Shown: positions 10,820 through 19,800 of the stretch, piece by piece
How the letters are laid out: each line of letters opens with the position of its first letter
How positions within the stretch are numbered: position 1 is the stretch's first letter
Translations under genes and position numbers: made by a program
Origin: an uncultured virus (IMG/VR IMGVR_UViG_3300031787_000018)
Taxonomy: Duplodnaviria; Heunggongvirae; Uroviricota; Caudoviricetes
Strand: one strand, 5' to 3'
DNA: 20,000 nucleotides
IMG/VR virus record: IMGVR_UViG_3300031787_000018
Span: 112,426-132,425 of that record
The notes under the pieces: model-generated
The model's input: the letters and a program-made list of their open reading frames with translations, nothing else
What the model was told of the DNA's origin: nothing
The model's database searches: none

Positions 10820-12505
10820 TTAATCACCCCACACCCATTTTTTATTACCACAATCCCAAATAATGTTGTAACCACGTTCATACATTATTTGTTTTTCAGT
10901 CTTATTCGGATCATAACCATCTTTAATTAATTTATCTTTCCTAAAATTATATCTGTGCATTCTAACCAAGTCTTTGAAATACCAATAATTTAATTCGGTA
11001 TTTTTTAAAAATTTAAAGCCCAATTTTTCATATAAACCACCATCAAAATACCTGTTATCGGAATAAGATACGACATTTTTTGGTTTATAATTTTGTATGA
11101 AATGTCCGAACAATTTTGAAGCCCCACCAACTATTTTTGTGTTTAATTTATTACAAAATCTTAACATCTCATATTCATAATTGTTGTTACCCACACCTGA
11201 ACGATTACCGAATGTCATAACAGAAACCAATTCGTCTTTATAATATAAACCCAAATTTATAGACGCGTTAACAGACCCTTGAATGTGGTTATTACCCAAA
11301 AATTTCGATGATTCTTTATTGGTTATTGTTTTTATAACACACTTTCTTGCGAATATATTGGTATCGAATATGTTTAAATTAGCTTTTATAATAGATAATA
11401 CAATATCTTTTTTAAATAACCACTCATCTTCAAAAATATGTAATAGTTTAATATTTTTATCTTTACATAATAACGTCTTATTTATGTGATATGTTTTACT
11501 TTTATTTATTTCACTATGCCAATACAATCCATCATATTCTATGGCTAAATTTTTCTGCGGTATGAAAATATCCAATTCACAACCACCGAGTATCTTTTTA
11601 TTATTAATCTCAACTAACATCCCAGTCAAATTCTCTATATAACTAACAATATCTCTATGTGGTTTGGTGTAGTTTGATCCGTTAAGTGGGAAACAATTGA
11701 TGCATATTTCATACCCCAACCTATTTCTTTGATTAAATAAATAATTGTCTATTTTAAAAATTTTGTCACATTTATCACATTTTAATGTTAATACTTTATT
11801 TTCGTAATCAATAAAAGTATACCCACTGAAATTATTTAATTTATCTATTATTTTGTTTTTAAAAATCACATTTTTAAACTCTTCACTTTGTGAGTAGTTC
11901 TCTACATTAAATTTTGTTAAATTAGTTTTTTTAGATTTTTCTTTAACTTCTTCTAACTGAAAAGGGTTTGATACGCCGTATTTTTTAATAAGATTCTCTT
12001 TTCTTAAATTCTTTATATCGTCAGAATACCAATGGTGGGTAAAACCGTATCTTTCTAAATTAGTTTTTTTTACTTTATTTTTTATTTCATCATTATGTAA
12101 ACTACATGTTACACCATACTTTTCTAAATTAGTTTTTTTTACTTTATTTTTTATTTCATCATTTCTTAAAGGACTTGTTACACCATATTTTTTTACATTA
12201 GTTTCCTTTATTTTATTTTTAGTATTTTGGTTATTTACACCACATTTTATAGAACAGTTTTTATTATAACCCTTTTTTAGTGAGATAAATTTCACATCAT
12301 TTACCCCACAAACCTCACATTTAGGTGGTTTGTTAGTATTATTTATATATAAATAAATTTTCTCTTTAAAAGTTAAGCTGTCTTCTTTATTGAAGTTTAT
12401 TATTTTTGAGTATAAATCGTAGTTATTGTCCCGTAACCAACTTTCTCTAACCCTAAGACCGTTATTATTTTCAGTAAAATAATCCAGTAAATTTATATTA
12501 TCCAT
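10820..12505 (-). CDS. free-standing Hef-like putative homing endonuclease (Zn ribbons + TNLEKYG repeats + Vsr/DUF559-like nuclease + GNAT/Mom-like C-domain)
   Basis: CEVC..CSIKC and CDKC..CINC; KKTNLEKYG repeats; ELDIFIP..LAIEYDGLYWH..LLHIFEDEW; then FARKC..NHIQG..LRFC..GGASKL..SYSD..LYEKLGF. ATG 12505 preferred over TTG 12526 because ATATTTAT lies on the minus strand at 12533-12526. Confidence 0.75.
   Translation of the reverse strand: MDNINLLDYFTENNNGLRVRESWLRDNNYDLYSKIINFNKEDSLTFKEKIYLYINNTNKPPKCEVCGVNDVKFISLKKGYNKNCSIKCGVNNQNTKNKIKETNVKKYGVTSPLRNDEIKNKVKKTNLEKYGVTCSLHNDEIKNKVKKTNLERYGFTHHWYSDDIKNLRKENLIKKYGVSNPFQLEEVKEKSKKTNLTKFNVENYSQSEEFKNVIFKNKIIDKLNNFSGYTFIDYENKVLTLKCDKCDKIFKIDNYLFNQRNRLGYEICINCFPLNGSNYTKPHRDIVSYIENLTGMLVEINNKKILGGCELDIFIPQKNLAIEYDGLYWHSEINKSKTYHINKTLLCKDKNIKLLHIFEDEWLFKKDIVLSIIKANLNIFDTNIFARKCVIKTITNKESSKFLGNNHIQGSVNASINLGLYYKDELVSVMTFGNRSGVGNNNYEYEMLRFCNKLNTKIVGGASKLFGHFIQNYKPKNVVSYSDNRYFDGGLYEKLGFKFLKNTELNYWYFKDLVRMHRYNFRKDKLIKDGYDPNKTEKQIMYERGYNIIWDCGNKKWVWGD
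12052..12163 (-). repeat. 69-bp-period coding repeat (23-aa unit containing NDEIKNKVKKTNLE(K/R)YG)
   Basis: Identical 43-mer TTTCTAAATTAGTTTTTTTTACTTTATTTTTTATTTCATCATT at 12052 and 12121; more diverged units flank them. Confidence 0.9.
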
Positions 12506-12555
12506 ATTGTATGACTTATTTATCAATAAATATATTCATTTTTAGCCAAAGTCAA

Positions 12556-12563
12556 ATATTTAT
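12556..12563 (+). promoter_or_regulatory. ATATTTAT motif upstream of the likely true DHH start
   Basis: 17 nt upstream of ATG 12581, supporting that start rather than TTG 12694. Confidence 0.5.
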
Positions 12564-12580
12564 TTAAAAAAGTGTAAATA

Positions 12581-14016
12581 ATGATAATATCAGAAAAAAT
12601 ATTTGAAAAGATCCTGATAGAAAGTGGAATACGTAATATACGTAATTTGTCTTATAGATACGATAAGGCAAAAATCTACTTTCATCAGGATCTTTGAGGG
12701 AACTTGATGGTGTTACAACGGCTATAGCTATGAAAAAATACCTAGAAGATAACGGTATTAAGGTTGTAGAGTGTGAAGTGATACAATACGGTGACCAAGA
12801 ATTTTCCATTAAAAAACCAATGGCAAGAGGTGATATCATGCCAGTTTTAGTTGACTTCGCTCACGGTAAACCGATGTTTGTTATACATACAGATCATCAC
12901 GATAAGCAAGTAGGTGCTGAAGCTGGAGCTTCCAAATCATTTAGACACTCTAGGTCCAACGTCGAGACAATTTCTCAAATAATATCAACTAAAGAATTAT
13001 TCCCTAGTTTTGATATTAATATGATTTCCACTATAGATAGTGCTAATTACGCTAAAATGGGTATATCTCCTGAACAGGTGATGAATTATGTATTTGGGTT
13101 AGATAAAGAGAAAAGTTTAGAGGATAACAAAAAGGCTATGGCTCTTGTTTGTAATAAACTTTTGTTGGCTTATAAAAACAAACCAAGATTTTTAGAAAGA
13201 TTGGTTATGGAATCTAGTCCATCATTGTTAAACATATACCAAAACATAGTTAGAATGGCTAAAGAAGAGGGTTATTCCTCACCAGAGGTTATGTCACAAT
13301 ATTCTAAAGAATATGGTGAAACTATGAAGAATAGTGAAAATGTGAAATATGATGAAAAAACAGGTATTATTTCACAATATGGTGGTGGTTCTATGATTAA
13401 ACCCGGATCTTATGACAGATACGTACCTTTTAAAAACTTTCCTGACGCTAACTTCTTAATTATAGCTTGGCCTTTAGGTTTACTACAGGCATCATGTAAC
13501 CCATTTAAACCTGAAAGGTCTATAAAGGGTATAAATTTGGGTGAAATAGCACAGGAAGTATTAAAAAAACACGAACAGGAGTTAAAAAACACAATAATAA
13601 GTGTAGACACTTTAAAATACTTCGCCGAAAAACACAAATCTTTTTCAGAGGAGAGTGTTGGTTTTACATTTAAAGATTTAATGTCACTATATGGTGATAT
13701 TGGTGAAGGTGTTAGGGGTTTAAACACAATTCCAGAAGGTGCCGCACCTGATTATACGGTTGAAAGATGGCAAAACGCTATAAAAAATGTGATGGACAAA
13801 CATTACTCAACTTTGGGTGAAAGAGAAATTAAGGCATTAAAAATGTTGTCTATAACTGGTTGGGATATTATCCAAGCAAACAGTGGGGGACACAAATGTA
13901 TAACTAACATATCGGGGTTAATGTATTTCGGCAAGGATGGTGTTCTTTGGCTTAAAAAATTACAATCCGAATTTATTGAAGAATTAAAAAACTTAATATT
14001 ACAAAATGAAAACTAA
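12581..14016 (+). CDS. DHH-family phosphoesterase in two frames (12581..12694 joined to 12706..14016, 474 aa if the 11-nt gap is skipped)
   Basis: Segment 1 ends KAKIYFHQDL-TGA; segment 2 resumes DGVTTAIAMK, rebuilding motif I (HxDxDG). Downstream are VLVDFAH, HTDHH, TIDSA and C-terminal SGGH (DHHA1), with no other disruption. Confidence 0.85.
12692..12705 (+). other. candidate translational bypass site: take-off CTT (12692-12694), stop TGA (12695-12697), matched landing CTT (12703-12705)
   Basis: CAT CAG GAT CTT tgagggaa CTT GAT GGT; removing 11 nt restores HQDLDG exactly. Confidence 0.65.
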
Positions 14017-18471: not shown

Positions 18472-18643
18472 ATATAAAGAAATTAAAACGGGTTTTATCT
18501 TTAAAGTTACGAATTTCACCACCACTTTGGATGGTATTGTGGATACTGTACATTTGAAAAGAATAGATACTGATGATACTTTAGAGGTGGGCGAAGATAG
18601 ATTTCAGAAAAACTTTATAAATGTTTATGATGAACAAAAATGA
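18455..18643 (+). CDS. hypothetical protein, 62 aa
   Basis: Overlaps the KTSC gene and is ATGA-coupled to thyA. Confidence 0.65.
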   Translation: MKLKNKYKEIKTGFIFKVTNFTTTLDGIVDTVHLKRIDTDDTLEVGEDRFQKNFINVYDEQK

Positions 18644-19800
18644 ACGTAATGGATAAACAATACACAGACCTTTTAAAGGATATATTGGAGAATGGTGTCG
18701 AGAAAGATACTAGAAACGGTAAGGTTTTAAGTGTGTTCGGGAGAACAATACGATACAAATTTAAGGATGGAAAATTCCCACTTCTTACGACCAAAAAAAT
18801 GTATTTCAAAGGAATTGTAACAGAATTGTTATGGTTCTTACGTGGTGATACAAACATCAAATACCTTGTTGATAATGATTGTCATATTTGGGATGGTGAT
18901 GCGTATAAGAACTATGAGAAAGAAATTTTAAGACAACGTGAATTACAAAAGAAAGAAGTAGAAAGATTGCGTAATTCTGGTAAGAGAGTTAAAGTATCTC
19001 TAATTGAACTACTATCAAAAGAAGAATTCATAAACAAAATAAAAACAGATGATGAGTTTGCTAAGAAGTGGGGTGAATTAGGTCCAATTTATGGTAAACA
19101 ATGGAGAAGTTGGAATGGGAATGGAAGTCCATTAACAAAAGATTACGAAGGTAATATAAGTTCATATTTAGTTAAACCAATAGACCAAATCGCAAACCTA
19201 ATCCGAGACCTTAAAACAAATCCAGACTCAAGACGATTAATGGTTAATGCTTGGAATGTTGGTGAATTGGATACGATGGTTCTCCCACCATGTCATTATG
19301 GATTTCAAGTTTATACAAGAGAGTTGAGTTTAGAAGAGAGAGAATCTCTAATGGATAAAATCTACGGGTTAAATAAAGAAACAAGACAAGTACCTTGGCA
19401 TATAGTTGATATTGATAAAGCTAACATTCCAACCAGAGCAATCTCTTTACTTTGGAATCAACGCAGCATCGATACTCCATTGGGTTTGCCGTTTAACATA
19501 GCATCATATGGTTTATTATTAGAAATAATTGCTAAAGAGGTTAATATGGTTCCTGATGAGTTAATTGGTAATTTAGGTGATACTCATATCTACTTAAATC
19601 AAATTGATGGTGTTAAAGAACAAATTACACGAGAAGGTTTTGAATTACCTAGATTAAAAATAAAAGGTATAAATGATAATCATATGATATATCCTAAACT
19701 AATACCAACAACTGGTGAGGAGGAATTTTATGAAATATCTGATTTTATATTAGAAGGATATCAATCTCACCCAACAATTAAATTCCCATTATCAAATTAA
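18640..19800 (+). CDS. thyA: thymidylate synthase (ThyA) with variable insertions
   Basis: FPLLTTKK, ELLWFLRG, LGPIYGKQWR, DSRRLMVNAWN, LPPCH, QRSxD..LGLPFNIASY, GDTHIYLNQ. Confidence 0.96.
   Translation: MNVMDKQYTDLLKDILENGVEKDTRNGKVLSVFGRTIRYKFKDGKFPLLTTKKMYFKGIVTELLWFLRGDTNIKYLVDNDCHIWDGDAYKNYEKEILRQRELQKKEVERLRNSGKRVKVSLIELLSKEEFINKIKTDDEFAKKWGELGPIYGKQWRSWNGNGSPLTKDYEGNISSYLVKPIDQIANLIRDLKTNPDSRRLMVNAWNVGELDTMVLPPCHYGFQVYTRELSLEERESLMDKIYGLNKETRQVPWHIVDIDKANIPTRAISLLWNQRSIDTPLGLPFNIASYGLLLEIIAKEVNMVPDELIGNLGDTHIYLNQIDGVKEQITREGFELPRLKIKGINDNHMIYPKLIPTTGEEEFYEISDFILEGYQSHPTIKFPLSN

Follow-up and report, generated by a model that had tools for sequence, protein, structure and literature searches.

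In a 20,000-nucleotide (nt) stretch of DNA from an uncultured virus of the Caudoviricetes (positions 112,426 to 132,425 of IMG/VR record IMGVR_UViG_3300031787_000018; hereafter the window), we found a predicted phosphoesterase gene that is interrupted by an 8-nt gap beginning with an in-frame stop codon. The coding sequence leading up to this gap folds into an 89-nt RNA three-way junction, and the junction recurs in related viruses that carry a gap at the same codon. We consider it probable that the junction is a conserved cis-acting 5' signal for a programmed ribosome hop of 6-11 nt, which would act through re-pairing of the mRNA at the ribosome exit.

The interrupted gene lies on the + strand. 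Its upstream open reading frame (ORF) segment (MIISEKIFEKILIESGIRNIRNLSYRYDKAKIYFHQDL; 12581-12694) runs for 38 codons from the ATG to a CTT (Leu) codon at 12692-12694, the proposed take-off codon, and closes with CAT CAG GAT CTT TGA. The gap TGAGGGAA occupies 12695-12702 and is absent from 46 distinct gapless alleles. It is followed by a second CTT (Leu), the proposed landing codon, at 12703-12705, and then by GAT GGT. From this second CTT the downstream ORF segment, of DHH/DHHA1-type phosphoesterase, continues in the -1/+2 frame (12703-14016; 437 codons plus stop).

The fold is enclosed by an outer stem, P1. Its 5' arm (12607-12628, + strand, as are all elements of the fold) is made up of P1a (12607-12618, AAAGATCCTGAT), a bulged A at 12619, and P1b (12620-12628, GAAAGTGGA). 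Read from the sequence, P1a pairs with 12684-12695 (ATCAGGATCTTT), and P1b pairs with 12675-12683 (TCTACTTTC) with one G-U. The 3' arm (12675-12695) spans the take-off codon up to the first base of TGA. Inside P1 there are two inner hairpins, P2 (12630-12644, TACGTA-ATA-TACGTA), which is conserved in four 8-nt-gap alleles, and P3 (12646-12672, 10 base pairs (bp)), which is given by RNAfold and by comparison of 8-nt-gap alleles. A preliminary description of this DNA had proposed these pairings by hand; all of them are present, and the three-way junction over 12607-12695 is both the minimum free energy (MFE) structure and the centroid of RNAfold. The base at 12619 (alignment column 18) stays unpaired in all alleles, and its identity is A, T or G.

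The same description held that the structure ends at the take-off codon, which was borne out, and named an unexceptional folding energy as a refutation, which did not occur. The energy of 12607-12695 was -38.2 kcal/mol, compared with -11.3 +/- 2.2 in 200 dinucleotide shuffles, none of which equalled it (z -12.2). The larger span 12581-12720 gave z -7.3. We also held the 38-residue peptide fixed and compared the observed energy of -39.5 kcal/mol with 1000 recodings drawn from the codon usage of the window itself (-13.2 +/- 2.9) and with 1000 permutations of synonymous codons (-17.3 +/- 4.0). Not one sequence in either set was as stable. The stem is built from codons that are rare here, namely CTG (1% of Leu), ATC (9% of Ile), CAG (12% of Gln) and AAG (14% of Lys). 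The Rfam covariance models gave no match in 12300-13000 at E values up to 1.

The gap separates the two Asp residues that are invariant in the first catalytic motif. In the window this motif, FHQD-L-DG, is split by CTT TGAGGGAA CTT, whereas gapless homologues read IYFHQDLDGVTT uninterrupted, and FHQDLDGV was contiguous in all gapless homologues examined (the gapless set was drawn from 80 of 434 relatives). Because the window carries 11 extra bases, a move of the peptidyl-tRNA-Leu from CTT 12692 to CTT 12703 would restore the motif exactly. Restoring FHQDLDGV requires this 11-nt shift from CTT to CTT, and no other shift does so.

Both halves of the gene are under strong purifying selection, and the gene is not decaying. 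Among residues invariant in 25 gapless homologues, the upstream ORF keeps 12 of 12 and the downstream ORF 128 of 128 (140/140 in all). The ratio of nonsynonymous to synonymous substitution rates (dN/dS) between the window gene and its closest gapless homologue is 0.076, at dS 0.90. The invariant residues include D36 and D38, whose spacing is fixed in the 25 homologues, as well as D100-H101-H102 and G431-G432-H433; we take these to be motif I (DxD), motif III (DHH) and the C-terminal GGGH.

From its modelled structure, the product appears to be a divergent DHH/DHHA1 phosphoesterase. The Pfam DHH model matched a full-length gapless homologue weakly (E 1.2e-4, 22.8 bits, cut-off 28.1). An AlphaFold model of this homologue (predicted local distance difference test score, pLDDT, 76) resembled structures of the DhhP, RecJ, GdpP and NrnA types. 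The top 12 Foldseek matches listed were all of DHH type except one uncharacterised chain (E 1.6e-4 to about 1e-3). They include DhhP (9r7o), RecJ (5x4j), GdpP (5xt3), PAP phosphatase (8a8k) and PggH (7d62), with low template-modelling (TM) scores of 0.16-0.45 for this two-domain protein. The downstream ORF alone had no match in Pfam or PHROGs, and PDB sequences searched with a profile yielded no meaningful match. No near-identical DNA was found among GenBank phages, and a protein-level search of them returned just two distant homologues, both gapless and both in huge-phage records. Some gapless homologues (L031:1396-3342 and relatives) carry sigma-70 regions 2 and 4 as a C-terminal fusion (E about 1e-13), and another (L075:1411-3642) is fused to a TseH-like domain (E 1.3e-5, just under the Pfam cut-off).

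The gap in the window is one member of a family. Of the 80 viral-contig loci in the gapless comparison set, 76 were gapless, and the rest were two copies of the window allele, one other gap, and one fragment without the N-terminus. The locus L063 has a different interruption at the same place, GAC CTT TAA CTT GAC. We gathered gap alleles by three pattern scans that required the conserved YFHQD codons and a stop; other spellings are missed by such scans, and the position of the stop next to the take-off codon is partly imposed by the pattern, while the landing codon and the bases after it are not. Gap-bearing loci made up 40 of 69 and 12 of 14 viral-contig loci, and at least 13 among the 118 metagenome loci listed. 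At least 65 related contigs, viral or from metagenomes, are interrupted at this same codon.

Every interruption takes the form CTN-stop-(0 to 5 nt)-CTN followed by GAY GGN GT, with gaps of 3, 5, 6 or 8 nt. The take-off codon is CTT, CTG or CTC and the landing codon CTT, CTG or CTA in every gap allele. These matched CTN Leu codons were found in all 27 distinct viral alleles and in the 13 metagenome contigs listed, and a scan that permitted TTA or TTG as the take-off codon found neither. TGA, TAG and TAA all occur, and the gaps are both in frame and out of frame. Among 52 viral contigs, the 3-nt types were CTT TGA CTT (17), CTT TGA CTG (9), CTG TGA CTT (7), CTT TAG CTT (6) and CTT TAA CTT (1). 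The longer types were CTT TGACG CTA or CTG (2), CTC TGAGGG CTT (3), CTC TAAGGG CTT (2), CTT TGACGGGT CTT (3) and the type of the window, CTT TGAGGGAA CTT (2). The metagenome scan added the gap TGAGGAAA. In the 6- and 8-nt gaps (12696-12700 in the window; L156, L159, L090, L198), a conserved G-rich run (GAGGG, AAGGG, ACGGG or GAGGA) stands right after the stop. Pairing with the take-off codon is conceivable for this run, as is a likeness to a Shine-Dalgarno sequence; it stands 0-2 nt from the landing codon, too close for the usual Shine-Dalgarno role. In the 132-kb record, a crude search for further codon-stop-gap-codon junctions yielded 46 matches, mostly AT-rich chance or adjacent genes, and nothing comparable to the gap module was seen among those inspected, which were part of the 46.

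A hop of 6, 8, 9 or 11 nt yields the same protein across all gap classes. Judged by these alignments, readthrough, frameshifting or restart would each cover only some of the classes and would add residues to an invariant motif. One such account is a -1 or +2 frameshift in the 5- and 8-nt gaps and readthrough in the 3- and 6-nt gaps, with 2-4 extra residues and the structure as stimulator. The -1 frame from 12694 is indeed open in the window (TTG AGG GAA CTT GAT), and 5' structures can modulate frameshifting, as the accessible part of a 2016 review describes (PMC5009743). But this account needs two mechanisms for one family. The site is not slippery, since the tRNA-Leu would have to re-pair on UCU, and the window's +1 frame meets a stop after three codons. 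No one reassigned codon accounts for the occurrence of all three stops. The extra residues would have to be accommodated between D36 and D38, whose spacing does not vary, and the conserved matched CTN just before GAY would have no reason. We therefore regard this account as very improbable.

Another account treats the locus as a split gene, in which translation terminates at TGA and restarts at TTG 12694, the 38-residue peptide and a 440-residue protein assemble, and the structure holds the ribosome. The TTG overlaps the stop and is in frame with the downstream ORF, and by arithmetic the same T-TG is in frame for all 5- and 8-nt gaps. It is out of frame, however, in the 3- and 6-nt gap alleles, which make up most of the contigs, and the next ATG lies about 10 codons further on, past the second catalytic Asp. 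Restart would also place the Asp pair of motif I on separate chains, and it has no need of the landing Leu codon that every allele keeps. A split gene is very improbable, and a hop from one Leu codon to the next remains the reading that we prefer.

The stem and the gap occur together. We compared distinct gap alleles over 94 nt ending one base past the take-off codon, and found P1, of 17-21 bp and ending at the take-off codon, in 33 of the 34 distinct gap alleles among the matches listed. The 26 stem-forming viral alleles had MFE values of -30 to -42. The family-conserved core of P1 comprises 17 pairs, with its 5' side at 12611-12618 plus 12620-12628 (+) in the window. At least 16 of these pairs can form in 24 viral gap alleles, 12 in another and none in L102, and at least seven new metagenome gap alleles, those listed, form 16-17. 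The long-gap classes extend the stem by a further 2-4 bp, through the take-off codon. The two inner hairpins were found in 25 of 27 viral gap alleles. In other gap classes they stand in the same place with a different sequence and register. Since they vary in this way and yet are always hairpins, their job may be to fold up the 46-nt loop.

Gapless alleles lack the stem, as the preliminary description would have predicted for a structure tied to the gap. It was found in none of 46 distinct gapless alleles. Forty-five of these had MFE values of -5.9 to -23.8 and could form only 6-12 of the 17 core pairs, and a targeted scan found one gapless allele (two contigs) with stem-type codons in the 3' arm, which forms 8 of 17 pairs (MFE -8.2). 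Several gapless alleles (L054, L068-L072, L075 and L080) have another local hairpin (ATTTCAGCTTTAAGG...CCTAAAGCTGAAAT) at the region of P3, with MFE about -23 and z -3.3 to -3.7. The difference between gap and gapless alleles is local: over the 75 nt past the landing codon their folding energies are alike (median -13.7 vs -13.1, p 0.56), and we rejected a 3' barrier structure on this ground.

The only stemless gap lineage is the L102 group (L102, L113, L127, L148 and L149), which reads CTT TGA CTT and has an MFE of -10. It carries an extra in-frame TAA 84 codons downstream of the landing codon, and because of this premature stop it is probably a dead gene. Its upstream sequence is like that of the gapless allele L291/L292.

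Compensatory changes were found within the stem, at the two pairs 16-84 and 10-90, in keeping with the covariation expected of a maintained fold. In 23 distinct viral alleles, the pair 16-84 (12617/12685 in the window) is AU in 11 and GC in 11, and the pair 10-90 is GC in 18, AU in 3 and GU in 1. Across 29 short-gap alleles the pair 16-84 is GC in 19, AU in 9 and GU in 1. The P1 cells of the 23 viral alleles pair in 91% of cases, compared with 33-48% when the partners are slid by 1-3 columns. The 3' arm encodes IYFHQD and is little free to vary, so the signal comes from codon choice and the two covarying pairs. The pair 12626/12677 is G-U without exception (23/23 alleles), which indicates that the fold belongs to the sense-strand RNA and not to DNA.

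The gap was also present in independent sequence data. At least 95% of the sampled words were found in 14 DNA runs from at least ten studies, and six metatranscriptome libraries contained 31-76% of them. Contigs from two RNA libraries (12581-12863 and 12599-13050) span stem and gap without a difference or an indel, and one DNA run that was not flagged as a possible source likewise covers both without a difference or an indel. The gap is thus not an assembly error, and it is not removed in the RNA-library contigs. One metatranscriptome contig starts exactly at the ATG of the gene (12581); this is a contig end and may be chance.

These data bear on a further alternative, a dead gene in which the structure is incidental. 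An in-frame stop and a change of frame after 38 codons are what such a gene would show, and the L102 group does resemble a decaying gene. But the window gene keeps all its invariant residues at a low dN/dS, no recoding of its peptide folds as stably, 33 distinct alleles carry the stem with compensatory changes, and the gap sequence is identical across many independent runs. A dead gene is hardly credible here, and the argument of the preliminary description against a random inactivating insertion is strengthened by the exceptional stem and its linkage to the gap.

We further examined how the gap is distributed over the gene tree. A full-length protein tree was built from 60 rows (7 gap and 53 gapless alleles) and 458 columns, and on its well-supported branches the gap state must change at least six times. 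In all six independent contrasts between gap and gapless alleles the stem goes with the gap (sign test p 0.031, the lowest value that six pairs allow). The sister of the window is the gapless allele L005 (support 100), and the other 8-nt-gap allele lies within a different gapless clade (support 100). The window shares 63% identity with L005 upstream of the gap, compared with 80-93% downstream. The window and the other 8-nt-gap allele are 83-90% identical in the module and about 73% identical downstream.

Immediately upstream in the window, 55 nt from the interrupted gene, there is a divergent gene for a homing endonuclease (10820-12526, - strand; 568 aa; phrog_3339, E 1.9e-135; Pfam DUF7487). 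The gapless alleles L005, L006 and L019 are followed downstream by relatives of this endonuclease (40-45% identity), and the neighbourhood of the phosphoesterase gene seems to be a repeated landing place for endonuclease elements. No homing endonuclease was found beside the gene in five other gap-bearing records, and we rejected an endonuclease cassette as the general companion of the gap.

The scattered gap alleles, the mosaic identities on the two sides of the gap and the nearby endonuclease gene would all suit a mobile DNA module, spread by recombination or homing, whose fold serves mobility or persistence (for example by shielding a nuclease target) rather than translation. As a replacement for a role in translation this is quite unlikely: the five other gap-bearing records lack the adjoining endonuclease, the invariant and further G-U pairs indicate sense-strand RNA rather than DNA, and a gene under strong purifying selection still needs to be decoded across its gap. 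As an account of origin, mobility is compatible with the hop.

For the hop itself we propose the following course. The ribosome would read 38 codons and halt with peptidyl-tRNA-Leu on CUU 12692-12694 and UGA in the A site. The tRNA would release its codon, the ribosome would advance by 11 nt, and the same tRNA would re-pair on CUU 12703-12705. Decoding would then restart at GAT and give a product with an intact FHQD-L-DG. At take-off, nearly the whole 3' arm of P1 (17-21 nt) would be inside the ribosome, and the inner hairpins would already have refolded outside, keeping the free 5' arm at the mRNA exit. Each emerging base could pair at once, favouring forward movement and opposing backward movement, and P1 would act as a zipper, either as driver or as ratchet. 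The outer pairs of the long-gap stems would form only after landing and would serve as a backstop.

Folding energies are consistent with this geometry. We took a ribosome with CUU in the P site to cover about 12-15 nt upstream. The emerged mRNA alone folds into P2 and P3, with the stem limited to its first five pairs or fewer. With an 11-nt advance in the window, the emerged mRNA becomes more stable by 15.2 kcal/mol if the exit is placed at -12 and by 9.7 kcal/mol if it is placed at -15. Median gains were -8.2, -9.6, -10.6 and -14.5 kcal/mol for hops of 6, 8, 9 and 11 nt, whereas identical moves in gapless alleles gave -0.5 to -1.5 kcal/mol. The idea that zipping behind a stalled ribosome pushes it forward, raised in the preliminary description, therefore fits the geometry and the calculated gain of -9.7 to -15.2 kcal/mol; the push itself we infer.

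The phage may contribute a tRNA of its own. The record encodes 22 tRNAs, and the one with anticodon UAG could, from its anticodon, read every CUN codon used. Two tRNA-Leu genes, with anticodons UAG and UAA (G000:C1:30204-30403, outside the window), have lengths of only 77 and 75 nt and a short variable loop; their Leu identity is taken from the anticodon only. A short variable loop is unusual in a bacterial-type tRNA-Leu. The nascent peptide is the conserved N-terminus of the enzyme in gap and gapless alleles alike, and the comparison therefore cannot isolate a peptide signal. In its fullest form, our reading would make these genes the first natural family of programmed stop hopping, a self-contained RNA module of three-way junction and CUN-stop-gap-CUN that is exchanged horizontally and whose refolding energy at the mRNA exit moves the ribosome by 6-11 nt without normal translocation, perhaps aided by the phage tRNA with anticodon UAG. 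We put this forward tentatively, as possible but doubtful.

Several points weigh against an RNA-driven hop. The hop is deduced from comparison of alleles, and the RNA-library contigs, which may contain DNA, can neither prove transcription nor exclude rare edited forms. The energy calculation presumes an exit boundary of 12-15 nt and equilibrium folding. The outermost pairs, including those of the take-off codon, form only after landing and so cannot drive the hop. In the phylogeny, a 115-residue tree of all alleles was poorly resolved, with one well-supported contrast, and two of the seven gap rows in the full-length tree lie on long branches. Stem and gap may also, to judge from the alleles compared, travel between them as one recombining unit, and for this reason the contrasts show linkage and not repeated independent invention. 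Finally, stem length is not tuned to the hop, as the 17-bp core is shared by 3-nt- and 8-nt-gap alleles.

This last point would also suit a different role for the structure, in which hopping is real but the stem is a timer or gate rather than a push, working through ribosome spacing, load dependence, RNase III-type processing or factor binding. The linkage of stem and gap is silent on the stem's mode of action. With the 5' arm just 27-48 nt past the start codon, the next ribosome would melt it, and the 5' stem-loop of T4 gene 60 is reportedly sensitive to the spacing between ribosomes (available part of bioRxiv 10.1101/2024.12.09.627546). On the other hand, all 33 alleles have the 3' arm directly against the take-off codon, a placement that a roadblock or binding site does not need, and the inner hairpins vary in sequence and register, contrary to a sequence-specific binding site. 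We consider a timer or gate unlikely beside the exit-side re-pairing that we favour.

The preliminary description also proposed an alternative hairpin around the stop codon that excludes P1 and could act with it as a switch. This hairpin (12683-12709, +) exists in the window at -9.9 kcal/mol; it holds the UGA in its apical loop and competes with P1a for 12683-12695. Its stability is marginal, with z -2.1 and 12 of 300 shuffles as good. Only the TGACGGGT alleles, another 8-nt gap type, show it clearly (z -3.1 and -3.3), and it was at chance against shuffles in the TGAGGAAA allele and in the tested 6-, 5- and 3-nt gap alleles. We therefore rejected a take-off hairpin as a family-wide signal, and the proposed switch is not supported as a general feature, being conserved nowhere beyond part of the 8-nt-gap class.

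The parallel with T4 gene 60 drawn in that description holds for the logic and not for family membership: the gap module appears, by analogy, to be a non-homologous relative of gene 60 bypassing that stands outside the gene 60/MobA cassette family. Both systems have a landing codon that matches the take-off codon, with a stop directly 3' of the take-off codon, both interrupt an essential, conserved phage-enzyme motif with a non-coding gap, and both have mRNA structure on the 5' side of take-off, with proposed zipping at the exit. For gene 60, exit-side mRNA pairing has been proposed as a forward driver in the accessible parts of two sources (bioRxiv 10.1101/2024.12.09.627546; PMC5009743), the former of which describes what happens at the mRNA exit as 'arguably the main unsolved problem'. 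The patchy, mosaic distribution seen here is also shared with the gene 60/MobA cassettes, for which the available text of the Manning and Atkins preprint takes it to suggest a mobile module.

The two systems differ in several respects. The gene here encodes a predicted DHH phosphoesterase instead of a topoisomerase subunit, the codons are CUN (Leu) instead of GGA (Gly), and the gap is 3-8 nt instead of 50. A three-way-junction stem of 17-21 bp abuts the take-off codon here, whereas gene 60 has a small hairpin 9 nt upstream (available part of bioRxiv 10.1101/2024.12.09.627546). The 5' structure is the best conserved signal in our family, but in gene 60 cassettes the 5' stem-loop reportedly lacks conservation from clade to clade, in the part of the Manning and Atkins preprint available. 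Unlike in gene 60, no conserved take-off stem-loop was found in the alleles tested, and unlike the gene 60/MobA cassettes, the gap has no constant adjoining endonuclease (absent in the five other gap-bearing records).

Low-level stop hopping has reportedly been seen in synthetic E. coli constructs by Weiss et al. (1987) and O'Connor et al. (1989). In one synthetic example, CUU-stop-CUA, the peptidyl-tRNA-Leu is said to re-pair on a nearby CUN, so that 9 nt are read as one amino acid. Those hops were unprogrammed, inefficient and artificial, whereas the candidates described here lie in a natural, conserved and selected gene with a large putative stimulatory structure. A further relative is the +1 frameshift site of RF2 (prfB), CUU UGA C, which is the classic shifty stop. 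The commonest form in the gap family resembles it, with tRNA-Leu on CUU and UGA then C. Unlike at the RF2 site, the +1 frame in the window closes early, and the proposed productive event is a hop of 6-11 nt. The RF2 stimulator is a Shine-Dalgarno pairing 3 nt upstream, whereas here it would be an intramolecular stem.

Natural in-frame stop hopping was not known according to the accessible part of the 2016 review (PMC5009743). The terminase gene of Streptomyces phage Hau3 has candidate 10-nt bypasses, as described in the available part of PMC10732093. As in our family, the gaps are short and interrupt a phage gene; a 5' stem-loop is proposed, and the landing codon is brought near (same part of PMC10732093). 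According to that text, however, the trigger there is a rare UUA sense codon with a Shine-Dalgarno sequence 5' of the gap, rather than a stop as here (PMC10732093). The examples are few, covariation is unreported in the text available, and the gene and host group are different (PMC10732093). We found no paper on this gap family or on a three-way-junction hop signal in the full-text literature outside subscription journals.

Elsewhere in the window, the thymidylate synthase product (18640-19800, +) is 386 aa long, more than the span that it matches in the PHROG profile (29-307 of 335). Another, shorter profile matches it in two stretches, and it may contain an insertion.

Programmed bypassing has rested almost wholly on T4 gene 60, where the role of mRNA pairing at the exit is debated. 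The gap family is probably an independent natural system in which exit-side structure is the dominant conserved signal. It offers a ready series of natural variants, with hops of 6, 8, 9 and 11 nt, three stop codons, several codon pairs and one stemless, probably dead allele, and this series makes the question of driver versus ratchet directly testable. It also serves as a warning for annotation, as such genes get called truncated or split. If our reading is true, the family would supply the natural in-frame stop hopping that the available text of the 2016 review describes as unknown (PMC5009743), and its design could be transplanted so that ribosomes hop at will.

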